From: Dehalococcoidia bacterium
GTDB lineage: Bacteria > Chloroflexota > Dehalococcoidia > Lucifugimonadales > JADFKI01
DNA: 64,000 bases
Reading direction: 5' to 3'
Assembly (NCBI GenBank): GCA_965200085.1
Contig: OZ241333.1
Span: 547,704-611,703 of the forward strand
Part shown: positions 3,935 to 64,000 of the stretch, one piece after another
Layout: each line of letters begins with the position of its first letter
How positions within the stretch are numbered: the first letter of the stretch is position 1
Notes under the pieces: model-generated
Seen by the model: only the letters and a program-made list of their open reading frames with translations
The model's database searches: none
Told to the model about the DNA's origin: nothing
Program-made: the position numbers and the translations under genes

Positions 3935-5404
3935 TCAGTGTGAATGCGAGCTGCTTGGATAGACCTGCTTCATCGCATCTATATCTCGCGTTTTAGGATT
4001 AGTTACAGCATCCTGACCTAGTTGGGCTTCGAAATGCATCAGGTTATCACTGTCAGGGTCGTGTCCTAAGCCAGCAACATGCCCAAACTCATGCGCCATC
4101 ACACCCGGTAGGGAAAAATGGTCAGGTTTAACATTAGGATCATCGTCCCAATTATAGGAATCATTCTGCAGGTCATCGTAGTACATATGCTGATATGTGA
4201 TGTGTGGGCTGGTGGTGGAATCGTACCAACTGTTCACACAGGCTAAAGCAGGGGTGCCACAAGGGTTTTTATTACTGTTAGCTCCTAAATTGGGATCAAA
4301 CAGGTATTTAGTATATTCCCATTGCTACGGCCATTATTACAAATACCAATAATAGTATTGTCGTCTTTCACCACTCGAAGCCTATTGGAAGGCATCACGC
4401 TGTTCCACTTGTCTGCGCCACTGTCTATGGAAGCTTCGTAGTCAAATCCGGCAGGATGCGAAGGCGGGCTGCCGCATATAAGATACGAAATACGCTTATC
4501 GTGATGGTGCGGTGCGCGAGGAATAGTCAGGGGCGCAAATGTGTTTGGCTGATATTCATTATCGAGGGTCGTTGTAATGGTCAGTTCCGAACTTCCATCG
4601 CCAAGCCTGCAGCGCACCAAGTTGAACTCTACTGATATAGATCCGCCGGTGCTGGTTATGGATTTAGACCTTGTCCTTTGGGACGGCGGCGGCTGAGAGT
4701 AGTTGCACCAAGCGTCTGAGGATGCCGCTATGTCCATTCCTGAGTTGGAAGGCACACTCAGCGTGAACTTATAAACCCCTTTTGATGTGTTAGTTGATGA
4801 TACTTTGACCGTAATTGTCTGCAGAACTGGGAAATAGTTATAGATTGATAAGTTTGATGCATTATCTAGCGCCTTGCCATCTACATGAGTAACTTGCACA
4901 CTGATTGGAAAAGGCGTGGCGTGGCTGTTGGTGTAGGTGTGGATGTTGGCAGAATAGTGGTCACATGAGCTGTCCAGGCAGAATAGGAAAGACCATTTTT
5001 ACTTCTTATTCTGTGATAGTAGGTATTACCATTCGTAAGATCACCTACTACTGCTTCTGTTGCGTCGGTGAAGGTTATCGTGTAGTTGCTGTTTCCTTCG
5101 GAGAACGGCAGTATATTCCAATCAGCTTTATTGTTGGGACATATCGATGCCTTGCCGCACCACTGCTGCACATCGTAGCCGGTGGCATTTGTGACACATC
5201 GTTCCAGTCAAGGGATATACTTCCGTTGCCTGCTGTGCCAGTCAAACCCGTAGGGATTGTCAGTGATGGAGGTGTTGGGGTATGCGTGGCAGTAGGATTA
5301 GTGGGCCAGCTAGGTGTAGGTGTGGCAGTAGGGGTAGGAGGTATCGGTCCGTAAACTGTAGGAGTGGGAGTAGGTGTATGAGTGGGTGTACGAGTAGGCA
5401 GCAT
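3935..5404 (-). pseudogene. Degraded secreted FN3-domain metzincin (M10/matrixin-like) protease gene, split over four frames
   Basis: Pieces 5404..5075, 5171..4881, 4899..4285 and 4237..3935 read through one another. The FN3 domain is split (GNGSISLDWNDV | TNATGYDVQQW...NGNTYYHRIRSKNGLSYSAW). It contains PT linkers and the zinc site HEFGHVAGLGHDPDSDNLM (HExxHxxGxxH plus Met-turn). It starts inside a PT linker next to an IS remnant, so the 5' end is also missing. Confidence 0.65.
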
Positions 5405-5420
5405 TGTACCTATTGTGTAC

Positions 5421-5688
5421 TTAACCCGATGTGCGAGTTAGATACTCTCCGACTATCTCCATCGTCAGAACCTCGCTGCCTGCGAGCGTGGGCATAGGTT
5501 CCCTTTGCCTGATGCGTCTGCTTCCTAAAAGTTCTTTCAAAGTATCGTCAATTGTGCAAAAAGTGGTTATGATGAAATCGTCCAGGTTCATAGTGTCCTC
5601 CTTGGAGTTTGGTTCAACCCCATTAAAGACTCTGGGACCTGGACTTTCAACTATCACTGTCTTTTATATTTAACCTGCACATCGGGTT
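5421..5688 (-). mobile_element. Internally deleted IS remnant (MITE-like, 268 bp) keeping both terminal inverted repeats and a transposase N-terminal stub
   Basis: The left end is TTAACCCGATGTGCGAGTTAGATAC (5421-5445). The reverse complement of the right end is TTAACCCGATGTGCAGGTTAAATAT (5688-5664). The first 14 nt are identical and about 21 of 25 match. Inside is MNLDDFIITTFCTIDDTLKELLG..RIRQR.P.PTLAGSEVLTMEIVGEYL, a typical IS982/IS4-superfamily transposase N-terminus. Confidence 0.6.
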
Positions 5689-5745
5689 AAATATAAATAG
5701 AACTACAACTTCATCATCCAGATGCCCTATTTCCCGCTTCAGCGG

Positions 5746-5943
5746 CTACTGCTCTATACCCTTCGATGCTTTCCTTTCTCGCAGATAATTGTTTGCATAG
5801 ACTATTACAAGAGTTAATAACTCCGACACGATTAAAACATTCACTCCAATAAGGAGCGTTTCTGTTGTGATTCTTACTGCTGTTTCCATATTTACAGTAG
5901 GCTGTCCTACGATTTGCGACACCCAGAAGTAGCCGATCGGCAA
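5746..5943 (-). CDS. Possible small two-TM membrane protein (weak call)
   Basis: The frame reads ...WGAFLALFGLPIGYFWVSQIVG...LLIGVNVLIVSELLTLVIVYA. The only start in frame is a TTG. It competes with overlapping ORF 5714..5974. Confidence 0.3.
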   Translation of the reverse strand: MPIGYFWVSQIVGQPTVNMETAVRITTETLLIGVNVLIVSELLTLVIVYANNYLRERKASKGIEQ

Positions 5944-5996
5944 TCCAAATAAGGCGAGAAACGCACCCCATCATGAGGGCTTCTTCATCGACAGTT

Positions 5997-6161
5997 TTAC
6001 CCCCCTACATTAATCCTCTTTCTGTTCTCTTCTTTTTGCGAATCGTCGGAACTTGCCGCTATGCGATATATGTTCATGGCGATAAAAACCGCAGTTACTA
6101 ATCCCACCAAGATAATTATCAGTTTGGTAATCAAGGGTAAATCATTGATTATTTCACTCAT
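5997..6161 (-). CDS. Small single-TM membrane protein (54 aa), not in the ORF track
   Basis: Hand translation gives MSEIINDLPLITKLIIILVGLVTAVFIAMNIYRIAASSDDSQKEENRKRINVGG*. A strong Shine-Dalgarno AAGGAG sits 7-8 nt upstream of the ATG at 6161. Confidence 0.45.
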   Translation of the reverse strand: MSEIINDLPLITKLIIILVGLVTAVFIAMNIYRIAASSDDSQKEENRKRINVGG

Positions 6162-6213
6162 GTACGGTTCTCCTTATGGGGTCATTTCCATTCCAATTTT
6201 CAACACCTCCGTG

Positions 6214-6717
6214 TTATTTGAACGAGCCGGTCCGGAACACATCGAAGTCTTCGTCCCAGACCTCAATATACATTTCGGTCGTCCCCAGTATGTCTGTGGA
6301 GAGCTTGCCGATTAGGGGCGAAAGGTACTTTGATACATAGATCGCATCCTGTCGCTCCTCTATGCTTATGTTGAGCACAGGCTCGTCCATAAAGAGCGTC
6401 ATTGGGCACGCACCTTTCAGCCGGTCTTCAGTCTTGCTATTTATGCTATTTCGAGCTTCTCGCAGTATCAGCAGCCATAGCAGCGCAGGCACCGGATCGG
6501 CTCCGTCTGAGGTCAGCCTAATCCACTCCTCGCCAAACTCAACGCTCTCTTTTTCTCTCGGCTCAAGCCTCTCTTTCAGTTCAGGAGAGTGCGTGTAGCT
6601 TAAAGATCGAGTAAGAAACTCGGTTATCTCCGGGTAGTCGGCAATGTCAAGACCTGTAAATTCATAAAGACGCTCACCGATGCTTTCCTCAAATCTCTGC
6701 GATATTTCGATACCCAC
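6214..6717 (-). CDS. Hypothetical protein (167 aa) of the mobile-element-like module
   Basis: It is a long ORF in an AT-richer stretch, downstream of and co-directional with the replication-like gene. I recognise no motif. It has a GTG start, and its frame stays open about 95 nt further upstream. Confidence 0.5.
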   Translation of the reverse strand: MGIEISQRFEESIGERLYEFTGLDIADYPEITEFLTRSLSYTHSPELKERLEPREKESVEFGEEWIRLTSDGADPVPALLWLLILREARNSINSKTEDRLKGACPMTLFMDEPVLNISIEERQDAIYVSKYLSPLIGKLSTDILGTTEMYIEVWDEDFDVFRTGSFK

Positions 6718-9095: not shown

Positions 9096-9560
9096 CTACG
9101 ACTCAAGAAGAGGGTTGATCCCTCTGACATTGATGCCGTAATCGAATACCAGATCGCCGCCGGTCATCCCGGACATCGTCAGGAAGCCGGTCCCAACAAG
9201 GATAACGGCAAGGTATATTATTGATCTGCCCGCGTCCGAGCCTCTCCAGCGGGAGATCGACCTCCAGACTACCAGTGCGATGAAGAGGGCGGTTGTTGCG
9301 AAGCTCCAGTTCTGATGAGTATCTATGACGTTGTGTACGGGAGTGCCCTCGTATGCTTCGTGTCCTATAATCCCAGTTATGCTTGCTGCGATTGCCCCGA
9401 CAGTCCCTATCAGAAGCAGCACCCAGGACGCCTGATTCATACTGTCGCTTCCTCGCACACGCACCCAGATGCTTAGCGCCGCGCTCACAATGAGAAGAGC
9501 GATAGGGAAGTGGACTATGATGGGATGTATGTCTGTAATCGTGTCAGAAATTATATCCAT
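9096..9560 (-). CDS. DUF2231-family integral membrane protein
   Basis: It has the N-terminal signature IHPIIVHFPIALLIVSA and four predicted TM helices in 154 aa. Confidence 0.7.
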   Translation of the reverse strand: MDIISDTITDIHPIIVHFPIALLIVSAALSIWVRVRGSDSMNQASWVLLLIGTVGAIAASITGIIGHEAYEGTPVHNVIDTHQNWSFATTALFIALVVWRSISRWRGSDAGRSIIYLAVILVGTGFLTMSGMTGGDLVFDYGINVRGINPLLES

Positions 9561-9805
9561 TCGTAACCTCTCCGCTGTATATGAGTTCTACCTTGCTTGC
9601 GTACAAAGTAAGAGAACTTTGAGGGCTGCCTAAAGATATAACGATGGGGAGTTGCAATGGTTAGGCTTAGGCTCTGCTGTTGAGGTTATCCTGACTTGAA
9701 ATCTTGCTTATGAAAATATGTCGCCTGTCGGATTTATTCTCCCTTCTCAAAGGAATAGGACGACTGGGAACTGCACCGCTGGAATATCAACCCCAGCCTA
9801 GGAAC

Positions 9806-9842
9806 AAAAAAGACGCTCCTGCCATCCGGCAGCGAACGTCTT
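9806..9842 (-). terminator. Rho-independent terminator downstream of tRNA-Pro
   Basis: The minus strand reads GAAGACGTTCGCTGCC-GGAT-GGCAGGAGCGTCTT followed by TTTTTTG. It lies about 28 nt after the tRNA 3' end. Confidence 0.6.
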
Positions 9843-9869
9843 CTCATAACGGCAATACTATGCCAACTA

Positions 9870-9946
9870 TGGTCGGGGAGACTGGATTTGAACCAGCGAC
9901 CCCCTGCACCCCATGCAGGTGCGCTTCCAAACTGCGCCACTCCCCG
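9870..9946 (-). tRNA. tRNA-Pro (anticodon GGG), 77 nt with encoded CCA
   Basis: The reverse complement folds as a cloverleaf: CGGGGAG-TG-GCGC-AGTTTGGAA-GCGC-A-CCTGC-ATGGGGT-GCAGG-GGGTC-GCTGG-TTCAAAT-CCAGT-CTCCCCG-A-CCA. It has 7/4/5/5-bp stems, a T-loop TTCAAAT, U33, anticodon GGG and G37. Confidence 0.93.
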
Positions 9947-9956
9947 TCCAGCATCC

Positions 9957-9985
9957 AGAATAGCACAGCGCTTAGACGTGTTCAA
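9957..9985 (-). promoter_or_regulatory. Candidate sigma-70-type promoter of tRNA-Pro
   Basis: The minus strand has TTGAAC (9985-9980), a 17-nt spacer and TATTCT (9962-9957). The tRNA 5' end lies 10 nt downstream of the -10 element. Confidence 0.45.
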
Positions 9986-9998
9986 GAGCAATTGCGAG

Positions 9999-11186
9999 CT
10001 CACGCGTACCCAGTTTGGAAAGGAGTGATGCCGAGATAGTAGGGAGGAGGTTCATAGTATGCAAAGTAGTATTCCAGTCCGAGGTGCAAAACCCCAAGTT
10101 TGCCCCAGGAACAGACTTGTTTCCGAAATGACGGCGATACACGCATCCCAACAAGAATGAGCACAACACACGCCAGCACAACACCAAGCAGCAGACGCTG
10201 AAGACGACTTGATGTGGTAACGGTCGTGGAAGCAAGAGAGAAGCGCTGCTTGCCGTCCCTGAAGTACTGTTCAGGCTGCATCCGCTTGCGGTACATCTTC
10301 ACAGCAAGTCTCGCATCAGACAAGGAAGTTGCCAGATACCACGGATCCTTATGTCCGCTTCCCCAGAACAGCACGAGGTTTGTAGTCACTGCGCCATCCT
10401 GACGATACTTCACACCCGGCACGAACACGATGCGCCGCTTCCGCAGAGGGTAATCTCGCAATCTGCACCTGAACTCCTCACTTTGCACTATCACATCTTT
10501 CTTGAGCCGGATGACATAGTCCACAGGGTATCCACTGAAAGAAGGGAGGCGCTGTATAAACAGAAGCAGACTGGCTCTGCCAAAACCCCTGTCAGCAAGT
10601 ATCAGCGGACGAACAGTGTTGGGCAGGTGAGTTACCAGTCTGCGAATGAACATCTCCTCAAGGCGATTTTGAGAGGGATTCAGCTCCTCACTGCGCGACA
10701 CCCAGCTCAGAAGTGGGAGACCTCTCTTCCTGAAGCAGACCGCAGCGAACAGTCCGTTGAAACCTCTGCCAAGATCAGACCAGTCTATCATTATGGGTGT
10801 GAGACCTTTGAGTCGTGCGGTTGAGACGATGTGAGGCATCATCGCGGTCTGTGTTTGAAAGGGATCTAGGCGGTGGTTGGACAGGAAGCGGAACAGTCGC
10901 TTCTTGTTGTGGTGATGCGAGCTGGTTCTGGTTAGAGAGGATCGGGCAAGTTCTCTTGCGAGTACGGATAGTGAGAGTTGGCGGCGAGAGAGGATAGAGC
11001 AGGTTAACAGAGCGAGGTTAACTTTTCTGGTAGCTCTGATATTGGGGATAGCGCAGTTGAGAAATGTGCTGATGCTGTTATACCATTTCATTGGTCGGAC
11101 TCCTCAGGCAGAGTTTTGTCAACTTATATCTATACCTGAGTATCCGACCTTTTTCTATACCTCGTACTAAACTGGGTACGCGTGAG
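9999..11186 (-). mobile_element. Intact IS4-family insertion sequence (about 1.19 kb) with 18-bp perfect terminal inverted repeats and a 10-11-bp target site duplication
   Basis: CTCACGCGTACCCAGTTT at 9999-10016 is the exact reverse complement of 11169-11186. The direct repeat caattgcgag flanks both ends (9989-9998 and 11187-11196). A single transposase ORF lies inside. Confidence 0.85.
10000..11091 (-). CDS. IS4-family DDE transposase (363 aa)
   Basis: It has ILADRGF (second catalytic D) and YRKRMQPEQYFRDGKQ, which is the IS4 signature Y-x2-R-x3-E-x6-K. The ORF is uninterrupted. Confidence 0.85.
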   Translation of the reverse strand: MKWYNSISTFLNCAIPNIRATRKVNLALLTCSILSRRQLSLSVLARELARSSLTRTSSHHHNKKRLFRFLSNHRLDPFQTQTAMMPHIVSTARLKGLTPIMIDWSDLGRGFNGLFAAVCFRKRGLPLLSWVSRSEELNPSQNRLEEMFIRRLVTHLPNTVRPLILADRGFGRASLLLFIQRLPSFSGYPVDYVIRLKKDVIVQSEEFRCRLRDYPLRKRRIVFVPGVKYRQDGAVTTNLVLFWGSGHKDPWYLATSLSDARLAVKMYRKRMQPEQYFRDGKQRFSLASTTVTTSSRLQRLLLGVVLACVVLILVGMRVSPSFRKQVCSWGKLGVLHLGLEYYFAYYEPPPYYLGITPFQTGYA

Positions 11187-11474
11187 CAATTGCGAGCATC
11201 GAATCCGAGGGATGTCGTGAGATGCTACGGCATGATAGATGCCTGCAGCTGATATAGGCTGGCGGTACACTGGCGGTGCATTATGTCAGATTTCTCACTG
11301 CGCTGTCATCTCGTCCGAAATGACAGGTAAGAAGAACATTGCGCTGTCTTCGGGATGACAGCTCGGATATTTGGGCGCTTAAGCGGCGTTTCTGTAAAGT
11401 GGCTTGCGTGGGCTGATGTGCTAAACTGGGCGCAGAACGATGTGGATGATATAGCAAAGCACTCGGAGGAGAAT

Positions 11475-12728
11475 ATGAACGGCAACGGAACTCTGCTGCA
11501 AAAGACCGAACCATACGGACCGCTGGCAGGCGTAAAAGTGCTGGACTGGACGATGTGGCAGTTTGGGCCTGTGGCTGCATCGATGCTGGGCGACATGGGC
11601 GCGGATGTGATTAAACTGGAGGCGCTGGACGGCGATGTGGGACGCGCTGTGTCCTCGATGGAATCTGCGAAGGCAGGTATGCCCAACGGCAGGAATGCCT
11701 ATTTTGAGACCTGCAATCGCAATAAGCGAGGGATCTCTCTGAACCTGAAGACGCCGGAAGGCCGTGAGATTGCGCATAAACTGGTGGCGCAGTCCGATGT
11801 GGTTATAGAGAACTTCCGCAATGGAGTTGCGGAACGGCTGTCGATGGATTACGAGACGCTGAAGAAGATTAACCCGATGCTGATATACGGCTCCGCGTCC
11901 GGGTTCGGAACAGAAGGTCCCGACGCGATGATGCCGTCTCTGGATGCGTGCGGTCAGGCGCGCGCGGGTCTGATGATGTCTGCGACTCCGCCATGGGCGA
12001 AGCACCCCATATCCGTCAGAGGTGCGCCGTCTGACCAGATCGGGGGAATTATCCTTTGCTTAGGGATACTCTCTGCGCTGTGGGCGCGGGAGAGTCAAGG
12101 CATCGGTCAGAAGGTAGAAGTTTCACACATGAGCAGCACGATGTGGCTTCAGGGACTTGCGGTCGGAATGGATTTGCTCATCGGCAACCATATGCCCACC
12201 CTGAACAGAGAAGATGTGCGGAACTATATGTACAACATATACTTGTGCAAGGACGGCTGCTGGCTTCGGATATCGAACCCGCAGCCGAAGCGGTATTGGA
12301 GACCTTTCGTAGAAGCGCTGGGTATTCCGCAGGTGCTGGAAGATTCCAGATTTCAGGGAGTGGAAGACGGTGCGGAAGTGCATCCGGAGCTGCTTGGGCT
12401 GATTGAGGATACTTTCGCGACGAAGACCTATGCGGAGTGGGACGCGATATTCCGTCAATATGGGTTTATCTATGCGAAGGTGCAGAGCGTATCGGATCTC
12501 AAGAACGACCCGCAGGTGATTGCGAACGAATATATCACGGACTTTGATCATCCGGACATTGGGCCAATCAAAGTTTGCAACTTCCCGGTGGCGTACAGCG
12601 AGACACCGCCATCCATTGTACGAGGCGCACCGGAGCTTGGGCAGGATACTGAGGCGGTGCTCATCGATGAGCTCGGGTATGACTGGGATGACATTACAAG
12701 ATTTCAGGGCGCCGGGGCGATACTCTAG
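11475..12728 (+). CDS. Family III (CaiB/BaiF-type) CoA-transferase
   Basis: The N-terminus GVKVLDWTMWQFGPVAASMLGDMGADVIKLE and the overall length fit the family. Shine-Dalgarno GGAGGA at 11465-11470 precedes ATG 11475; the track start at 11355 is an upstream extension. Confidence 0.85.
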   Translation: MNGNGTLLQKTEPYGPLAGVKVLDWTMWQFGPVAASMLGDMGADVIKLEALDGDVGRAVSSMESAKAGMPNGRNAYFETCNRNKRGISLNLKTPEGREIAHKLVAQSDVVIENFRNGVAERLSMDYETLKKINPMLIYGSASGFGTEGPDAMMPSLDACGQARAGLMMSATPPWAKHPISVRGAPSDQIGGIILCLGILSALWARESQGIGQKVEVSHMSSTMWLQGLAVGMDLLIGNHMPTLNREDVRNYMYNIYLCKDGCWLRISNPQPKRYWRPFVEALGIPQVLEDSRFQGVEDGAEVHPELLGLIEDTFATKTYAEWDAIFRQYGFIYAKVQSVSDLKNDPQVIANEYITDFDHPDIGPIKVCNFPVAYSETPPSIVRGAPELGQDTEAVLIDELGYDWDDITRFQGAGAIL

Positions 12729-12960
12729 GCGGCACTTTGACGAGTGTTAGTTGGTCAGTTCGGTACTTGTAATCTGACGATGAGACCTCCGCAAGGCGCA
12801 GATGTACATGGTGGATATAATAAAAAAGTCCGCCTGCGACATGTGGTCAGCCCGTGGCATACAAATAGTCTGACTTCCATCCTGAAACGTCAGTCCTGAA
12901 TGCTGCTAATACCAATGCTGCTAATATCGAACAACCGGATATAACGATCCGACAAATAAA

Positions 12961-12990
12961 AGCCCTCTTCCGATAAGTAGGAAGAGGGCT
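12961..12990 (-). terminator. Rho-independent terminator of the hydroxy-acid dehydrogenase gene, possibly bidirectional
   Basis: An 11-bp stem AGCCCTCTTCC/GGAAGAGGGCT has loop GATAAGTA. It is flanked by an A-run on the left (a T-run on the minus strand) and tcttctattt on the right. It lies 36 nt past the stop at 13026. Confidence 0.65.
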
Positions 12991-13025
12991 TCTTCTATTT
13001 CGGTTCGAGAGGCAAACCGTATGAG

Positions 13026-14120
13026 TTATGAGCGCGGCCACCAGTCGGTGTCAGGCAGGTCAACGATACCCGGGTGGAGTTCGTCCGGTGTGCGGCAGCC
13101 GACATAGGCGAGCGCGCGGTCGAATTCAACCCTTAGGATGTTGAGCATAAGCTCGACGCCCGACGCGCCGTTGTACGCCAATCCCCAGTACAGCGGGCGT
13201 CCCACGAGCACGGCACGCGCGCCTAGGCAGATTGCTTTAAGCACATCTAGACCGCGGCGCACTCCGGAGTCGAGGTATATCTCAAGGCGGTCCCCGACTG
13301 CTTGTGCGATGGGCGGCAGGGTTTCGATACTGGAAGGCGTGCCGTCGAGCTGTCTGCCTCCATGATTGGAAACTACGATGCCGTCAACGCCGTATTCGGC
13401 GCACTGGATAGCGTCTTCGACAGTGCGAACGCCCTTTATTATGAGTGGCAACCCTGTGAGATTTCGCAGCCAGTCGAGCCTGTCCCAAGTTAAGCCGACA
13501 TATCCGGGTGGGTTCCAATCCGTGAGATCCGGAACGCCGACTGCTGATCGGTTGATGAGGTCCGGTCTGTCGCGAAGGCTGCCCCAATGCAGACCCGGCG
13601 CTGCCATGTAAAGATTGCGTATGTCGCGCTCTTTGGGGCTGCCGACCGGTGTGTCGATCGTGAGGCAGATGGCTTTATAGCCGGCTTGCTTGGCGCGCTT
13701 GACGAGGATTTCGGTTACTTCGTTGTCGTGGTGGTAGAGTTGGAACCAGAGGGGACCTGTGGCGACCTCAGCGACTTCTTCGATGCTGTATCCGGAACTT
13801 GTGGGCAGGGTGTAGAGGGTCCCGACTCGGCCTGCGCCGGTCGCAGTGGCACGCTCGCCTTCGGAGTGCGCTTGGCGCTGCCCGCCGGTGGGAGCGACCA
13901 TTACCGGGAAGGAGATTTTTTCGCCGAGAACGGTCGTGGAGAGGTCTCGGTCGGAGACATCTTTGAGAAACTGGGCGTTCACGAGTATGCGTTCGAATGA
14001 TGATCTGTTGCGGCGCTTGGTTATCTCGTCGTTGGATGCGGCATCTACGAAAGTCCACATATTATGCGACATCGTCTGTTTTGCGAGAGCTTCCATATCG
14101 AACAAGTTTACGGGATCCAT
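13026..14120 (-). CDS. FMN-dependent alpha-hydroxy acid dehydrogenase/oxidase (L-lactate dehydrogenase / glycolate oxidase family)
   Basis: Motifs are PLIIKGV, VVSNHGGRQLD and DSGVRRG..V.KA..LGA, with a family-typical length of 364 aa. Confidence 0.85.
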   Translation of the reverse strand: MDPVNLFDMEALAKQTMSHNMWTFVDAASNDEITKRRNRSSFERILVNAQFLKDVSDRDLSTTVLGEKISFPVMVAPTGGQRQAHSEGERATATGAGRVGTLYTLPTSSGYSIEEVAEVATGPLWFQLYHHDNEVTEILVKRAKQAGYKAICLTIDTPVGSPKERDIRNLYMAAPGLHWGSLRDRPDLINRSAVGVPDLTDWNPPGYVGLTWDRLDWLRNLTGLPLIIKGVRTVEDAIQCAEYGVDGIVVSNHGGRQLDGTPSSIETLPPIAQAVGDRLEIYLDSGVRRGLDVLKAICLGARAVLVGRPLYWGLAYNGASGVELMLNILRVEFDRALAYVGCRTPDELHPGIVDLPDTDWWPRS

Positions 14121-14478
14121 CGGACTACTCCCTCCGTAGTATTGTTAAGGTTTGATTAACAGCAGAGCGAATTATACCCTCAGAAAGGGGAATGTCAAAG
14201 GTTAGATGATGGTGTTAAATGGAATGTTGTAGTGAGTTGTGACAATGAGTTGTCGTAGATGACGCAGGCAATTGGCAGGCAATTGAATTGATACGAACTT
14301 AGTATCGCTGTATTCTAGGCGGAGTACGACTTTGCAGTCGTGCAAGTATTGTGCAACTGTGAGTGTGGCTGCAAATGTGAATAGAAAAGGCACAAGTTTT
14401 CGCCGCCGCGCTTGCTTATAACTTTGCGAACAGGCCTGGCTCTTTTATATGGCTGTAACTTGCATAGGAGATTTATGA

Positions 14479-15369
14479 ATGACGGCTAGAATTACAGAGA
14501 TTGCGAATGGCGTACACCAAATGGTGGTAGGCGAGGGAGCGCATGAAGGAGTATATGCGCCGAATGTCTATCTCGTAGTGGGCAGTGAGCGGGCTGTATT
14601 TGTGGATACGGCTTACGGCAAAACCGAAGAGGTGGACGGGTACTTGGAGTTTTGGCGGTCTGTCAGCACGCCGGAGATTGCTGCGATTATCCTGACGCAT
14701 AGACACGGAGACCACATCGGGGGCGCGATGCGTATGCGAACCGAGACTGGGGGCGACGTGATTTGCCATGCTGCTGAAAAGGAGGCTATTGAGTCGGACT
14801 TCGTCTCCGCACGAATGCCTGATCAGCCGTATCAGCAGCCCGGGGATCCAGCGATTGACCTCGACAATATTCCCGGCACGAAGGTGGACGCAGCGGTGGG
14901 CGACGGCGATACGCTGGCTCTCGGCGATGCTACGCTGGAGTTCATCCATACGCCTGGGCATACGATGGGCAGCCTGTGCATATTCCATCGAGAGAGCGGT
15001 GTGCTGTTCAGCGGAGATATGATTTTAGGAACAGGCACAACGGTTATCAGCCCGGAGCATGGTGATATGGCAGCGTATATCGCGTCGATGCGGAAGCTTC
15101 TCGAATATGATTCGCGCCTGATTGCCCCTGGGCATGGGCCTGTTATCGATACGCCCCAGGATAAACTGAATGAGCTTATCAGACATCGGATTGCGCGCGA
15201 AGAGCAGATTGTGGAGCTGGTAGATGCAGGCAATCGGAGTATTGACGCGCTGCTGGATGCCATCTACGCAGGTAACATACACCCTCAGCTAATGGAAACC
15301 GCACGCAGCCAGATACGCGCGCACCTGATTAAGCTGGAAGATGAAGGGCGGGTTTCCGGACTGATTTGA
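14479..15369 (+). CDS. MBL-fold metallo-hydrolase
   Basis: It has the HxHxDH motif THRHGDHIGG, then HTPGHT and GD..LG typical of the beta-lactamase fold. Confidence 0.85.
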   Translation: MTARITEIANGVHQMVVGEGAHEGVYAPNVYLVVGSERAVFVDTAYGKTEEVDGYLEFWRSVSTPEIAAIILTHRHGDHIGGAMRMRTETGGDVICHAAEKEAIESDFVSARMPDQPYQQPGDPAIDLDNIPGTKVDAAVGDGDTLALGDATLEFIHTPGHTMGSLCIFHRESGVLFSGDMILGTGTTVISPEHGDMAAYIASMRKLLEYDSRLIAPGHGPVIDTPQDKLNELIRHRIAREEQIVELVDAGNRSIDALLDAIYAGNIHPQLMETARSQIRAHLIKLEDEGRVSGLI

Positions 15370-58506: not shown

Positions 58507-59361
58507 TTACTCTTCAGCATCCAAAAACCAGCGCACCGTCGCCTCAAACGCCCCGGGAAACTCCTGATAGAACCAGTGCCCGCCTCCCTCAAGCTCCGCA
58601 AGCCGAAGCATCGGCGCGCTCCCCGCTATCGCCTCACGCATCCGCACCGCAACCTCATGCGTCAGCAGGTTACTCTGCCGTCCGCGCACAATCAGCGTAG
58701 GCACGGTCAGGCTGCTCCACTCAGCCCATAAATCCGGGCGCTCATACGCTCCCAGCAGCAGCCGGTCTCGCTTCCACACCCGCCTGCCGTCCGCAAGTTC
58801 GCGCGTCATCCACCGCGCCTGATGCCGCAGCATTTCATCCGTGGACTGAGGCTGCCGATCTCGCAGCCTCTCTACCACCGCATCCAGCGAGTCCCACTCA
58901 TCCGATTCCGCATTATACCGCACGAACATGCCCCGCGAATCCGGATTTACCGCGTCAGGATCAATATCTACCACCACAAGCGAACTCACCGCATCTGGAT
59001 GCTCCGCAGCGAACACAAACGCATAGCGCCCACCGGCAGAGTGCCCCACTAAAACAAGTTCATTCGGATCCAAATGAGACACCAGCGCTTCAACATCCGC
59101 GACATAATCGCGAAATCCGTATGCGTCCGGCGCAGTATGCGCGCTGTCCCCATGCCCCCGGCTGTCCAGCGCAGCCACACGATACTCGGAGCGCATCGCA
59201 GCCGCAAACACATCCCAGCTTCTCGCGCAGTCCTGCAAACCATGCAGCAGAACCATAGTCGGCGCATCCGGAGCAGGTGAACCCCAGTCTAGGTAGTGCA
59301 GCCGAACGTCGTCAGCGTCAAAGAATCCGTCTGTCGGCTGAAAATCCTGCATCGCCATCAT
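58507..59361 (-). CDS. Alpha/beta-fold hydrolase
   Basis: It has PTMVLLHGL, the nucleophile elbow LVGHSAGG and C-terminal GGGHWF. Confidence 0.85.
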   Translation of the reverse strand: MMAMQDFQPTDGFFDADDVRLHYLDWGSPAPDAPTMVLLHGLQDCARSWDVFAAAMRSEYRVAALDSRGHGDSAHTAPDAYGFRDYVADVEALVSHLDPNELVLVGHSAGGRYAFVFAAEHPDAVSSLVVVDIDPDAVNPDSRGMFVRYNAESDEWDSLDAVVERLRDRQPQSTDEMLRHQARWMTRELADGRRVWKRDRLLLGAYERPDLWAEWSSLTVPTLIVRGRQSNLLTHEVAVRMREAIAGSAPMLRLAELEGGGHWFYQEFPGAFEATVRWFLDAEE

Positions 59362-60291
59362 CTATATCCGCGGCAGATAACGCCTAGGAAACTTAGCAAC
59401 CACCGAATACAGAATATCCACCATATTAGCAAGACGCACACGCGCGACCTGCGAACACAGCTGGTACCCTGTCAGGCGGTCGATGCCGTAATCCGACTCC
59501 AGCCACATCACAAGCTCATAGAAAGCGATGCGCGCTGCATCCTCCATAGGGCGCGCGCTTCCGATAGTCATCAGAAACTCGTCTGACTCCACCCTGGGCG
59601 TCGCGATTGCCTGCCCCTTAATCAGATTAACAGTGATCGTACCGCGCGTCGGGATTTCAGTAGCCACGCCGCAAACCTCCGCATCCCCTTGCGCCGCATG
59701 TCCGTCTCCCACGTGCAGCAGCGCGCCCGAAACATTCACCGGCAAATGAACGGTATTCCCCGGGCAAACATCCGCAGCGTCCATATTGCCGCCATGAAAA
59801 CCCGGCGCGAGCGATGACACAGCCTCAAGCTCCGGCGCCGTGCCGATAGTTCCATAAAACGGCTCATAAGGTATCGTCGCTATGTCTAGCGAATCAGAGA
59901 AAGTAATCTCGCCATTGCGTATCGGATGCAGCATAACGCGGGCGGGTAGGGGAGGATTCAGCGTGCGAGTAAACACCGTGCCGCACAGACCGCCAAACTC
60001 CGGAATCAGCGCGCTTACGCCGTAGTCGCGCGTAACATCAATGGAATGAATCGTTACGCTGAGCGTATCGCCCTTCTCAGCGCCCTCCACATAGATAGGA
60101 CCCGTCAGCGGGTTCACATAAGGCAGCGTGATTATCTGCGTAATGTCAGCGTCCGGCGAATCTATTCTGTTCTCGAAGGCATCCGCCGTCTCCACCACAA
60201 AAGTCTCGCCCGGCACAACCCGCGCCACAGGCTGCTTATACGGCCCAATCACATACGAAAAATCGCCCGTATCATTAACAATCGTCTGCAA
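59362..60291 (-). CDS. Acetamidase/formamidase-family amidohydrolase
   Basis: It has PGETFVVET.DAF, NPLTGPIYVEGAEKGDTL.V.I and HVGDGHAAQGDAEVCG. Its stop abuts the start of the next gene at 59361. Confidence 0.85.
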   Translation of the reverse strand: MQTIVNDTGDFSYVIGPYKQPVARVVPGETFVVETADAFENRIDSPDADITQIITLPYVNPLTGPIYVEGAEKGDTLSVTIHSIDVTRDYGVSALIPEFGGLCGTVFTRTLNPPLPARVMLHPIRNGEITFSDSLDIATIPYEPFYGTIGTAPELEAVSSLAPGFHGGNMDAADVCPGNTVHLPVNVSGALLHVGDGHAAQGDAEVCGVATEIPTRGTITVNLIKGQAIATPRVESDEFLMTIGSARPMEDAARIAFYELVMWLESDYGIDRLTGYQLCSQVARVRLANMVDILYSVVAKFPRRYLPRI

Positions 60292-60310: not shown

Positions 60311-62509
60311 TCAACCGTCCCGCACTATCCCCAATTCATCTATGTATGGCGATGATGCAGAACCTTGCCCCAAATGCTTGTCCACCAGCATCACAATCCG
60401 AGCTTTTGCCCGTGTGAACGCCACATAAAATACACGCCGTTCTGCCTCCATCTGTTCAGGAGTTTTTGCATTTCGGTTTGGCCATATACCATCCACTACA
60501 TCGAGCAGCACCACAGTATCAAACTCTTTGCCTTTAGCGCGTAAAGCTGTCATTAAGTGCAAAGGATCTTTCCAAAGATTATCTTGGTTGCCGTCATCCT
60601 CAAATGGTGGAACATACAAAAGTGTACGCTTAGCAAGCATCACAGCATGAACGAATGAATCGTAATCTTCGCCGTATCGTTCTGCATATTTCGCAAGCTG
60701 TAGGAAAGGTGGATCCGTGTAGAAAATATCTTCTTCAGCTTTGCCCATATCATAGTGCAAGCCTTCGAAACAATCGCTTAATGTGTGAAGTGTATCTGCT
60801 ACTGTATGAGAACTAACGAAATCAGATATAGCATCAGCCATTTCAATGCTCATTTGGCGTCCGTGGTTTTTGCCTTTAAGTTCTCCATCATATTGCTCCA
60901 GGGCTTCTATTGCAGACCTTATATCTCTGGGGAAGGCTTGATGAAGATGCCTAAGCACCCCTTGTTTGTTTTTCCTATTCAGCGGGTAACGCTTCACCAA
61001 ATCGCATAAATCTACTATATCATTTACTATTTGACCACTACTTTGACGACCTAATGAGCGTGCTTTAATTTCCAAAAGGTTAAGTAAGCGGTCAAAAGTC
61101 TTACTTAGAAAAACTTGCAAATCTTCTGCGGCACAAAAGGGAACTTTCTTTGATGCAAAATATACTTGATACGGGATAATTTGGCTCCGCTTGCGTCCGA
61201 TAATTGCAACACGACTCGGACTGCCGCCCGCCGCTGTCGTCTCTTTTACTAGGTTATGCACATAATCGAGTGATTCTTCAAATCCGCTGGTTTCGATGAT
61301 GTCAATAAGGGCAGAATCACGGCTGGATGCCTTTATTTGCTTGGGCACCCTTCGTCCGTTATGTTCAATCAACATCTGAGAGTGGATAACAACATTCGCA
61401 GGTGAACGATAGTTTACACCAAGAGTATATGTCTTGAACTCAGTGCCAAAGAATTCTTCCGGGTTAAGAATATACTCAGGTGTTGCTCCACGCCATTCGA
61501 ATATTGCTTGGTCATCATCCCCCGCTATGGTCAGTGTGGCTCGATTGCGCTCGACAATAGCTTTGACCAATGCTAAGTCTAATGGATTAATGTCTTGAAA
61601 CTCGTCAACAAAGATATGGTTGTAGCTCGCAGCACCTGAAAGGCGTCTGCCTTCCTCTACATTCTTGTACTCATCAAGGTAAGCGTAGTATTTCTGATCC
61701 TCCAGCGTAAATGTAGCGCTCTCTATTAAATGCGCCGTAGAATCTCGCCAAAATCTAAAGAAGGCATTATATACTTTGCGCTTGTTCCCTATGGGAACTT
61801 CCTGCCTATCTTCAATGATTTGGCTGTCAAGTACATCTAGCTTGGTTAGCTCGTTGCATTGCTCTTCCAGCCGCCAACCCAAACCCTGCCGTACCAACTC
61901 ATCCCAATGCTTGGCAAATTTCTGATAGTTCGTATGTCGAACATGATCGAATCCAAGTGACTTGAAAGCATCTATTGAGTCCATCAATTTTCTCGGCGAA
62001 TTGCGTTGAGTCCATGAATTCTTGTTTATTGCATCTCGAATGCTTGTGTGCTTCTGCCATATAGGCTGAAGCTGATTCAACATTGCAAAATGATAATCAT
62101 CTTTCGATGTGATTAACTTAGGATAGGAAGAGACATTTTTAATGCGCCTGAAACCCCAAGAATTCAGCGTAGTAATCTCGACAAAATCTCGTATGGAGGA
62201 AAACTCGAAGTCTTCGTTAAGCCTCGTTGTAAGTTCCTGTTGTGCTGCTTTAGTGAAGGTTACTATTAAGAAACGCAATCTGCGGGGCCGAACAAGATTG
62301 GACGCTTTATCCGCAAGGTATTTGCATATGTACAGCAGGCAGAGCGTCTTACCACAACCTGCCGGAGCAAGCAATCTAATATTGTTCGTAGAAGGCGCTC
62401 TGCAAAAATTCCTTTGGGATACATCTAACTGTTCTAGCAAACTAATCCTCCTTAACAGAAATATAACCACGGAGTTCGCTAATCTATTGATAGCGTCATC
62501 CCTATCCAA
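60311..62509 (-). CDS. UvrD/Rep-like superfamily-1 helicase (732 aa) in a clearly AT-richer segment
   Basis: It has Walker A LLAPAGCGKT, motif II IFVDEFQDINPLD, GDDDQAIFEWRGA, VNYRS, and C-terminal KGKEFDTVVLL and VAFTRAKARIVML. The TTG start lies 1 codon after the stop of the upstream small ORF. Confidence 0.85.
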   Translation of the reverse strand: MDRDDAINRLANSVVIFLLRRISLLEQLDVSQRNFCRAPSTNNIRLLAPAGCGKTLCLLYICKYLADKASNLVRPRRLRFLIVTFTKAAQQELTTRLNEDFEFSSIRDFVEITTLNSWGFRRIKNVSSYPKLITSKDDYHFAMLNQLQPIWQKHTSIRDAINKNSWTQRNSPRKLMDSIDAFKSLGFDHVRHTNYQKFAKHWDELVRQGLGWRLEEQCNELTKLDVLDSQIIEDRQEVPIGNKRKVYNAFFRFWRDSTAHLIESATFTLEDQKYYAYLDEYKNVEEGRRLSGAASYNHIFVDEFQDINPLDLALVKAIVERNRATLTIAGDDDQAIFEWRGATPEYILNPEEFFGTEFKTYTLGVNYRSPANVVIHSQMLIEHNGRRVPKQIKASSRDSALIDIIETSGFEESLDYVHNLVKETTAAGGSPSRVAIIGRKRSQIIPYQVYFASKKVPFCAAEDLQVFLSKTFDRLLNLLEIKARSLGRQSSGQIVNDIVDLCDLVKRYPLNRKNKQGVLRHLHQAFPRDIRSAIEALEQYDGELKGKNHGRQMSIEMADAISDFVSSHTVADTLHTLSDCFEGLHYDMGKAEEDIFYTDPPFLQLAKYAERYGEDYDSFVHAVMLAKRTLLYVPPFEDDGNQDNLWKDPLHLMTALRAKGKEFDTVVLLDVVDGIWPNRNAKTPEQMEAERRVFYVAFTRAKARIVMLVDKHLGQGSASSPYIDELGIVRDG

Positions 62510-62512
62510 AAC

Positions 62513-62773
62513 TCATCCCCACGCACGCCGCATATCATACACACTCAATACAACGACCAACAGCACAAGAACAGCACAGTACACTACATTCATCATGGAC
62601 AAAACTTGCCATGCCCAGTAACTCGCACCATAGGCTTCCATAGCAAACCGAAAAAACCAGTTGCCCGCAACACCGACTAAAATCAGCCCGCAAATGGTCA
62701 GCATGGCAACAACCGCCCTGGCAAGTACGTCAAAACACTTCCTCACAAAAGCGATTAGCGCAGGATGAAACAT
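62513..62773 (-). CDS. Small (86 aa) multi-TM membrane protein immediately upstream of the helicase
   Basis: VVAMLTICGLILVGVAGNWFF and MMNVVYCAVLVLLVVVLSVY are hydrophobic helices. No clear Shine-Dalgarno was seen, so the coding status is moderate. Confidence 0.45.
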   Translation of the reverse strand: MFHPALIAFVRKCFDVLARAVVAMLTICGLILVGVAGNWFFRFAMEAYGASYWAWQVLSMMNVVYCAVLVLLVVVLSVYDMRRAWG

Positions 62774-62802: not shown

Positions 62803-64000
62803 CTACGACGTCCCCACCACCTCCTCATCCACCAGCGACTGCACCTGATCGTCCGAATAACCCAAAATATCCGACAGCAGCTCGCGCGTATGCTGCCCCA
62901 CCGTCGGCGCAGAACCCACCACCATCGGCGTGCGGCTGAACTTGATCGACTCGCCGCTCACCCACATCGTCCCAGCCACAGGATCCGGCACTTCCATCAT
63001 AATATCGCGCTCGTGCAGCTGCGGCTCGTTCGCTGCCTGCTCCGTCGTGTTCACCGGCGCGCAGGGTATGCTGTGCGCCGACAGGTCATCCACCGCCTGC
63101 TTCGTGCTGCGCTGCTTCAGCCATGCGCCAATCTCCCCCTCCAGCACATCCACATTCTCCGTCCGCGAATCCCTGCTCTGGAAGCGCGGATCCTCAAGCC
63201 ACTCAGGCTTGCCCAGCGCATCGCACACCCGCAGCCACATGTTATCGTTCCCCGCTGCCAGTATGACATAGCCGTCTGCCGTCTCGTACATGCCGCCGAA
63301 CGGCGTTCCCCCGCCTCCGACCGCCGAGTCCGGCCGCGTAGTCTCCACGCCGCCGCCCAGATACGCCGATATCGGGATCTCGTTTACAGTAAATCCTGTA
63401 TCCGCAAGGCAAACTTCAAGCGCCTGCCCCTCGCCTGATAATTCACGCTCACGCAGCGCCGCAAGCGCGCCAATGCAGGCATGCAGCGCAGTAATGCGGT
63501 CTATCAGCGGGAAGTACGTCTTAATCGGCGGCAGGTCGCCGTACCCCGTCAGCGACATAAGTCCGCCCATCGCCTGTCCTATAGGATCGAAGCCAACCTT
63601 ATCCCGATTAGGACCATACTGCCCATACGCCGACACATTTATCATAATAATCTTCGGATTAAGCTTCTTCAGCGTCTCATACCCAAAGCCCATAATGTCA
63701 ATTGTGCCGGGACGGAAGTTCTGCAAAAGAATGTCCGAAACTTTCACAAGATCGCGCAGCACCTCCTTGCCTTTATCAGTGCGAAGGTTAATCGCAAGGC
63801 TCTTCTTGCCGCTGTTATATTGCACCCAATATGCGGACTGCCCCCTCACTCTGGGACCATTGGCGCGGCTCTCATCGCCGCGCACCGACTCCACCTTGAT
63901 AACCTCAGCGCCCATCCGCGCGAACATCAGCGCACATCGCGGACCAGCCTGATATCGGCCCAAGTCCAGCACTCTTATGCCCTCAAGCGGCGTACTCAGT
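62803..64000 (-). CDS. Second family III (CaiB/BaiF-type) CoA-transferase, 5' end at or beyond the window edge
   Basis: The frame stays open to base 64000 (LSTPLEGIRVLDLGRYQAGPRCALMFARMGAEVIKVES). The track start at 63972 is the internal Val of the RVLDLG motif. Confidence 0.85.
   Translation of the reverse strand, partial: LSTPLEGIRVLDLGRYQAGPRCALMFARMGAEVIKVESVRGDESRANGPRVRGQSAYWVQYNSGKKSLAINLRTDKGKEVLRDLVKVSDILLQNFRPGTIDIMGFGYETLKKLNPKIIMINVSAYGQYGPNRDKVGFDPIGQAMGGLMSLTGYGDLPPIKTYFPLIDRITALHACIGALAALRERELSGEGQALEVCLADTGFTVNEIPISAYLGGGVETTRPDSAVGGGGTPFGGMYETADGYVILAAGNDNMWLRVCDALGKPEWLEDPRFQSRDSRTENVDVLEGEIGAWLKQRSTKQAVDDLSAHSIPCAPVNTTEQAANEPQLHERDIMMEVPDPVAGTMWVSGESIKFSRTPMVVGSAPTVGQHTRELLSDILGYSDDQVQSLVDEEVVGTS

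Follow-up and report, generated by a model that had tools for sequence, protein, structure and literature searches.

On the minus strand of the window, by which we mean the whole 64,000-nucleotide stretch of contig OZ241333.1 (Dehalococcoidia bacterium) analysed here, a gene for a UvrD-like superfamily 1 (SF1) helicase and an 86-codon open reading frame (ORF) for a small membrane protein, hereafter TM86, are wedged into a co-directional string of catabolic genes. Comparison with sister genomes shows the helicase gene, as far as sequence can tell, to be a horizontally acquired insert which left the flanking genes intact, and its product is an SF1A helicase of an unnamed, mobile clade whose members are encoded as solo genes. 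The locus comprises the following features, with GC3 denoting the GC content at third codon positions.

62803-63972, minus strand: family III CoA-transferase gene, the conserved left flank of a variable slot (Pfam CoA_transf_3, 7.9e-109)
62513-62773, minus strand: TM86, an ORF of 86 aa for which two hydrophobic helices are predicted, a resident of the slot and not a partner of the helicase
60311-62509, minus strand: longest helicase ORF (from the ORF list)
62441-62509, minus strand: 23-codon 5' extension of the longest helicase ORF, found in no homologue and most likely an untranslated leader
62447-62453, minus strand: Shine-Dalgarno sequence AAGGAGG, read from the sequence, 6 nt upstream of the helicase TTG
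60311-62440, minus strand: solo gene for a UvrD/PcrA-type SF1A helicase of 709 aa with a TTG start at 62440 (Pfam, PDB search, AlphaFold2 and Foldseek)
60311-62470, strand-neutral: low-GC foreign segment, approximately the helicase gene and a short leader (GC profile, per-gene GC and GC3, genome percentile)
59362-60291, minus strand: acetamidase/formamidase-family gene with a TTG start, the conserved right flank (Pfam FmdA_AmdA, 1.8e-33)
58507-59361, minus strand: alpha/beta hydrolase gene, the downstream member of the operon, syntenic in relatives (Pfam Abhydrolase_1, 6.7e-27)

The gene order, family assignments and intergenic gaps along the minus strand (counted with the longest helicase ORF, 29, 3, 19 and 0 nt) had been given in a preliminary description of the region and agree with the ORF list and the Pfam matches. 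The same description had remarked on the AT-richness of the helicase segment, which is confirmed by the composition of the genome: the helicase gene has a GC content of 0.434-0.436 and a GC3 of 0.41, compared with 0.56-0.60 and 0.62-0.71, respectively, in the flanking genes, and it falls into the 0.26th percentile (z = -3.7) among windows of 2.13 kb taken over the whole genome (2.83 Mb, a single contig). The values for TM86 (GC 0.487, GC3 0.517) lie between those of the helicase and of the flanks. No tRNA or other Rfam element was found in the region, and a plus-strand ORF of 159 aa (62142-62621), which has no PHROG match (a Pfam scan was not made), was taken as spurious.

The genes flanking the insert are well conserved within the genus. 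A search of the 21 other genomes of the genus found orthologues of the formamidase gene, 88-92% identical, in 14, and in 11 genomes of the genus a CoA-transferase orthologue (86-94% identical) adjoins the formamidase gene; the order CoA-transferase to formamidase is kept in all 11 loci inspected, with the hydrolase gene next in all 10 loci that reach that far. The space between the first two genes is a slot, the content of which varies from genome to genome as follows.

G002, G005 and G007: empty, 55-71 nt
G015: 318 nt with no clear gene
G020: a 375-nt remnant
G004, G008, G009 and G013: two small ORFs, ~108 and ~105 aa
G014: a 98-aa ORF and a dCTP deaminase gene
G021: a relative of TM86 and a gene for a 211-aa membrane protein

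All slot cargos are co-directional with the operon. On one side, homology with the empty sites picks up again in the last CoA-transferase codons, and on the other ~15 nt ahead of the formamidase TTG; alignment of the junctions showed that the TTG start and the ~15 nt upstream of it are common to the relatives. Since the slot is empty or filled with other cargo in the sister genomes, the helicase gene is an insert. Relatives carrying the same helicase at this position, which would have pointed to vertical inheritance, were also looked for: their helicase homologues lie at other loci, and none is found in this slot. Thus, the earlier proposal of a horizontal acquisition is borne out by the synteny of the slot, the GC content, the location of homologues elsewhere and their polyphyly in the phylogenetic tree (see below). 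Taken over the genus, a 55-nt gap inside a conserved operon serves as the slot for at least 5 different co-directional cargos, and variable slots of this operon-internal kind are less well known than hotspots linked to tRNA genes or lying between operons.

The two-ORF cargo occupies positions 727-1500 of locus L012 (G004), 744-1500 of L014 (G013), 2425-3180 of L016 (G008) and 2425-3178 of L013 (G009). In G004, G008 and G013, it is bounded by imperfect direct repeats of ~20-80 nt, which are duplicates of the 3' end of the CoA-transferase gene and of intergenic sequence, and the second ORF ends in a copy of the C-terminal codons of the CoA-transferase. The repeats, which align with scores of 24-35 in these 3 genomes (200 shuffles gave at best 23-30), look like an att-like target duplication; the corresponding score of the helicase insert in the window is 18, within the shuffle null. 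An initial assignment of the two ORFs to a DUF4258/DUF2283 toxin-antitoxin (TA) pair was dropped, there being no match in Pfam, PHROGs, PADLOC or NCBIfam. The slot of G014 (L017, 579-1500) holds a 98-aa ORF and a gene for a 189-aa dCTP deaminase; the latter was rejected as a defence gene, being an ordinary Dcd (NCBIfam equivalog, 145 versus 92.8 bits) with no PADLOC match.

The start of the helicase gene had been placed at a TTG one codon past the stop of the membrane ORF, giving a protein of 732 aa. All 17 other full-length homologues checked, however, start with M..LD.SQ..FC.AP..NIRLLAPAGCGKT, and the aligned position in the window is the TTG at 62440, which is preceded, 6 nt upstream, by AAGGAGG (62453-62447); the 23 codons located 5' of this TTG are conserved in no relative. 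With this conserved start and its own Shine-Dalgarno sequence, the protein is 709 aa long and begins 72 nt away from the TM86 stop, so that the length of 732 aa has to be revised and the abutting stop and start are no longer an argument for the coupled translation of TM86 and the helicase that had been suggested. A consensus scan of the minus strand between 60000 and 63200 found neither a sigma-70-like promoter nor an intrinsic terminator, which makes read-through from the host operon plausible: the helicase gene would probably be transcribed in this way and its product translated from its own ribosome-binding site.

The core UvrD motifs, reported already in the preliminary description, are all intact. 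In the numbering of the 709-aa protein, they comprise Q9, the Walker A motif 25-APAGCGKT-32 (motif I), motif Ia (TFT, 61-63), motif II (DEFQD, 279-283), motif III (GDDDQAIFEWRGA, 307-319), motif IV (NYRS, 343-346), motif V (MTALRAKGKEF, 630-640) and motif VI (YVAFTRA, 672-678), all of which are invariant or nearly so across 45 family members. The protein matches the Pfam families UvrD-helicase (1.7e-28; 100.5 bits versus a cut-off of 23) and UvrD_C (3.3e-27; 96.3 bits versus 25.6), and a sequence search of the PDB retrieved PcrA (3e-26) and UvrD (4e-26), both with 95 bits, followed by Rep; one of the alignments runs unbroken from helicase residue 273 to 684 along PcrA residues 217 to 617. An AlphaFold2 model built from the 45-sequence alignment (predicted local distance difference test score, pLDDT, 85.6; predicted template modelling score, pTM, 0.78) was matched by Foldseek over its full length (~730 columns) to UvrD, PcrA, Rep and UvrD1 of M. 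tuberculosis (E ~1e-24, TM-score 0.54-0.65). The sequence and the model together show the predicted protein to be a complete SF1A helicase of the UvrD/PcrA/Rep type with all four subdomains (1A, 1B, 2A and 2B).

This assignment bears on two regions that had been considered unusual. The supposed long insertion between motifs Ia and II is ordinary subdomain 1B, which is nonetheless ~50 aa longer than in PcrA, and the C-terminal region to which no domain could be given a name corresponds, according to the PcrA alignment and Foldseek, to subdomain 2B and the second half of 2A. An extra domain in these regions was ruled out by the full-length superposition on UvrD, PcrA and Rep and by the continuous PcrA alignment. 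A PD-(D/E)xK-like D...EDQK motif in 1B was likewise set aside, the segment being helical; its position is presumably that of the conserved acidic motif that precedes motif II in UvrD and Rep.

The protein ends ~22 aa past motif VI (the alignment stops at residue 684 of 709, equivalent to residue 617 of 724 in PcrA) and thus lacks the ~100-aa C-terminal tail of UvrD and PcrA. In these proteins, the tail after motif VI mediates docking on partners. The scores against the NCBIfam equivalogs are also far below the cut-offs (145.6 versus 965 bits for UvrD, and 135.4 versus 911, 131 versus 1144 and 119 versus 951 bits for others), and a separate UvrD-like gene is present elsewhere in the same genome, at 228-230 kb. 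Given the missing docking tail and the presence of this other gene, it is unlikely that the inserted helicase replaces the host's own UvrD. Compared with UvrD, PcrA and Rep (PDB 2is2, 3lfu, 1pjr, 1uaa and 9dci), with which it shares the four subdomains and every helicase motif, the window helicase is only ~20% identical in sequence and, whereas the former are core genes, it is accessory, patchily distributed and horizontally mobile. From its motifs and modelled fold, we infer an ATP-driven DNA translocase or helicase, for which a 3'-5' polarity is assumed by analogy with other SF1A members.

To place the helicase among its homologues, we scored 8,000 candidates from an index of 5.8 billion proteins, with a threshold of E <=1e-30, which was reached by at least 1,259 proteins. 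The best 120 clusters are all ~690-740 aa long and 57-68% identical to the query, a level of identity across phyla that signifies purifying selection, and are named in the index only as 'UvrD-helicase domain-containing protein' or 'ATP-dependent helicase'. More than 120 clusters are at least 57% identical, and the sources given by name include Truepera, Eisenbacteria, Planctomycetota, Blastocatellales, Sedimentisphaerales and Chloroflexota, and a copy from Limisphaerales is 58% identical. These sequence comparisons show the helicase to belong to a large unnamed clade of ~700-aa solo helicases, apparently mobile across at least 6 phyla. The clade is rare and patchily distributed. Of the 21 same-genus genomes, 4 have a copy, always at another locus; a copy was found in 1 of the 16 other families in the order, and a phylum-wide sample of 400 genomes yielded 1. 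In the maximum likelihood tree, the same-genus copies are interspersed with copies from other phyla in at least 3 clades, each with its own support, which indicates repeated acquisition. Of the 23 other contexts in which GC content was measured, 21 have a helicase gene 3-18 points lower than its flanks, and no non-coding flank is conserved across 18 family members. Loss is seen as well: the copy in G005 is a pseudogene, interrupted by an insertion sequence (IS; a transposase fragment) and by TAG and TAA stop codons (L025, 6612-9547), the frame of the Limisphaerales copy is divided between two ORFs, and an in-frame TGA is present in that of G513. Among 50,697 phage and 72,556 plasmid records, no close member of the clade was found, all matches being <30% identical; thus, although the profile of phage UvrD-like helicases (PHROG 1967) matches residues 2-683 of the helicase with 8e-63, the window protein has no close relative among them.

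Two further observations concern individual members of the clade. The G005 pseudogene adjoins a small antitoxin-like ORF and a PIN-type-looking toxin gene, both recognized by eye and not scanned, with a methyltransferase-like gene nearby. Homologues in three related contigs only, L115, L117 and L120, share a motif ~60 nt upstream of the helicase start (...CCGCTGAAATTTT...ACATTGAACATG...AAATGGAGA...ATG), which is absent from the window and could be a promoter or operator common to a single sub-clade.

In every one of ~25 genomic contexts of homologues, the helicase gene is solo. Its neighbours include genes of restriction-modification (RM) systems: a fusion of an N6_N4 methyltransferase (MTase) and HNH directly downstream in G006 (L022), a truncated type ISP enzyme abutting the helicase in L027, in L116 an ISP-like fragment on one side and an HsdM_N fragment on the other, together with a C5 MTase, an N6_N4 MTase in L028, HsdR at a distance of 4 kb in L029, and HsdR and HNH near the helicase in L110, a Truepera contig. 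A Septu-like pair of AAA_15 and HNH genes lies just downstream in L122, the helicase of L115 resides in an island with zeta, MNT, PIN, ParE and Panacea genes, and IS elements or an integrase are found near the homologues in L023, L024, L120 and L121. Overall, RM, TA or Septu-like genes occur within 7 kb in ~10 of the ~25 contexts, as a raw count. The association of the clade with defence genes is suggestive, and the link of the helicase to anti-phage systems is only a lead.

The RM-gene fragments in L027 (1-3641) and L116 (6572-9392), which are unrelated contigs, carry ISP_coupler and N6_Mtase, Type_ISP_C and HsdM_N domains, and it looks as if the helicase cassette landed in, or replaced part of, a type ISP/HsdM-like gene. 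In L122 (6101-10342), the helicase gene lies between an NAD-synthase-family gene and a gene with a Ni_insertion domain, which we take to be LarE-like and LarC-like, respectively. The helicase gene is separated from them by 69 and 12 nt, a neat fit into an operon gap like that of the insert in the window.

The preliminary description proposed a pair of helicase and small membrane protein, a combination that is not known as a named system, and the neighbourhoods of the homologues do not bear it out. TM86, which by inspection has two hydrophobic helices, has no match in Pfam, NCBIfam, PADLOC or PHROG. Its sole relative is a 106-aa ORF of G021 (35% identity, E 2e-16), located in the same slot, directly after the CoA-transferase gene, with no helicase; no further relatives were detected in 40 related genomes, 400 genomes of the class or the index of 5.8 billion proteins. 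With its open frame and a hydrophobic pattern kept at 35% identity, TM86 is probably a real, fast-evolving gene. A two-gene system, in which TM86 would be a membrane effector and the helicase its sensor, could be read from the adjacency and common direction of the genes, with no terminator between them, from the somewhat low GC content of TM86 (0.487) and from the position of the G021 relative, which is likewise the first gene of a slot cargo. Yet in none of the ~25 contexts does the helicase have a small membrane ORF, a TM86-like gene or any other conserved small gene as a neighbour, the G021 relative is followed by a 211-aa membrane protein instead of a helicase, the databases hold no other relatives, and the helicase starts 72 nt off with its own Shine-Dalgarno sequence. 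We therefore regard the pair as highly improbable; the comparisons show TM86 to be an unrelated resident of the slot, which removes the proposed helicase and membrane-protein 'system' as a false lead.

In the slot of G021 (L011, 477-1398), the 106-aa relative of TM86 precedes the gene for the 211-aa protein, which is polytopic and has no family match, and the two may form a genus-specific two-gene membrane module. A sub-threshold match of the 106-aa ORF to DUF2976 (E 0.0013) was not used.

Among known defence systems, the closest comparison is with GajB of Gabija, which is also a UvrD-like SF1 helicase of variable or defence regions. The top PADLOC matches of the window helicase are indeed GajB models, with E-values down to 3e-44, and this would fit an orphan GajB, the remnant of a Gabija system from which GajA was lost. 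These matches, however, are fragmentary, consisting of two to three partial stretches with a total of <=150 bits, and the solved GajB chains align with only residues 271-363 of the helicase (34 bits, E ~1e-7), compared with 95 bits for PcrA and UvrD. Furthermore, the window helicase, at 709 aa, is ~200 aa longer than the solved GajB chains (493-499 aa), and it occurs without GajA: the OLD-like_TOPRIM family (PF20469) has no match in the whole genome, control genomes being positive, and no GajA (OLD ATPase-TOPRIM) gene lies beside any homologue in the ~25 contexts, the neighbours in the window being TM86 and the formamidase gene. With no OLD-type TOPRIM protein in the genome and only weak, partial GajB matches, membership in Gabija was rejected, and descent from a decayed Gabija system is very hard to credit.

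The leading interpretation is that the helicase gene is a horizontally mobile, single-gene, low-GC cassette with a defence-type accessory role against invading DNA, a reading which, including its structural statements, we regard as having an even chance of being correct. The helicase might unwind the replication or recombination intermediates of phages or plasmids, or strip proteins off them; alternatively, it might burn nucleoside triphosphates on foreign DNA ends. Such a role appears the most likely one given the turnover of the gene and its frequent place beside or inside RM and TA loci; more broadly, it is suggested by a gene that is accessory, conserved under selection, mobile and often lost, with a product that has no docking tail and with RM and TA loci nearby. 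Several observations nevertheless weigh against it. The GajB matches are no stronger than those to models of housekeeping UvrD and PcrA, and the other cargo of the slot is not recognizably defensive, with no PADLOC matches. No significant direct or inverted repeats, att-like site or recombinase flank the insert in the window. About half of the homologue contexts contain housekeeping genes only (L029 with RecF, L031, L113, L117 and L118), and RM and TA genes abound in the genomes of sponge or marine symbionts in any case, the count of such neighbours having been made without matched random loci.

The main competitor to a defence role is an accessory motor for genome maintenance, acting in replication restart, roadblock removal or the limitation of illegitimate recombination, which we hold possible but doubtful. 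In fold and motifs, the protein corresponds to UvrD, PcrA and Rep, with no extra effector domain, the best matches among curated models are UvrD and PcrA, and some homologues lie near genes of DNA metabolism, namely RecF (L029), ImuB/DnaE2 (L116), RecA/RecX (L121) and PolA (L117). Set against this are the canonical UvrD-like gene already present in the genome, the absence of the C-terminal partner-docking tail, the frequency of RM and TA genes among the neighbours, and the patchiness (1 in 400 genomes), cross-phylum transfer, pseudogenes and low GC content, all typical of accessory defence or selfish genes rather than of repair functions. The IS elements or integrase near the helicase in L023, L024, L025, L120 and L121, together with the copies that are pseudogenes, could instead mark the gene as a remnant, with no present function for the host, of a mobile element (such as an integrative element) that has decayed. 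We consider this unlikely: this gene and more than 100 clusters have kept the frame and every catalytic motif, the 57-68% identity across phyla is a sign of purifying selection, no element genes consistently accompany the helicase, and the phage and plasmid records contain no close members. The defence role is accordingly ranked first and genome maintenance second, with the element remnant, the TM86 pair and the orphan GajB all unlikely.

If the defence role holds, the ~700-aa clade may, as a tentative extension, constitute an undescribed single-gene system against phages or other mobile elements, a bare UvrD-type motor with neither nuclease nor partner, which would spread between at least 6 phyla and land in operon gaps and RM loci. 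The literature searched contained no account of a comparable UvrD-like defence gene acting solo. The helicase itself is ordinary-looking and the locus alone is not remarkable; it is the clade, conserved across phyla, mobile and recurrently found near RM and TA genes, that makes a reasonable candidate for defence screening.

Two observations concern low-GC genes elsewhere. In L024 (G007; 9302-14876), three large low-GC genes, encoding proteins of 421, 598 and 823 aa, adjoin a divergent helicase homologue; they have no Pfam or PADLOC family save for a weak AAA_22 match, and on the other side of the homologue lies a tyrosine-recombinase-like ORF, recognized by eye and not scanned. In the genome of the window, which has a GC content of 53.7%, the helicase segment is one of 22 low-GC islets (2-5 kb, GC <=0.46), another of which is located at window positions 4098-6227, and these islets are candidate foreign inserts of single or few genes, like the helicase.

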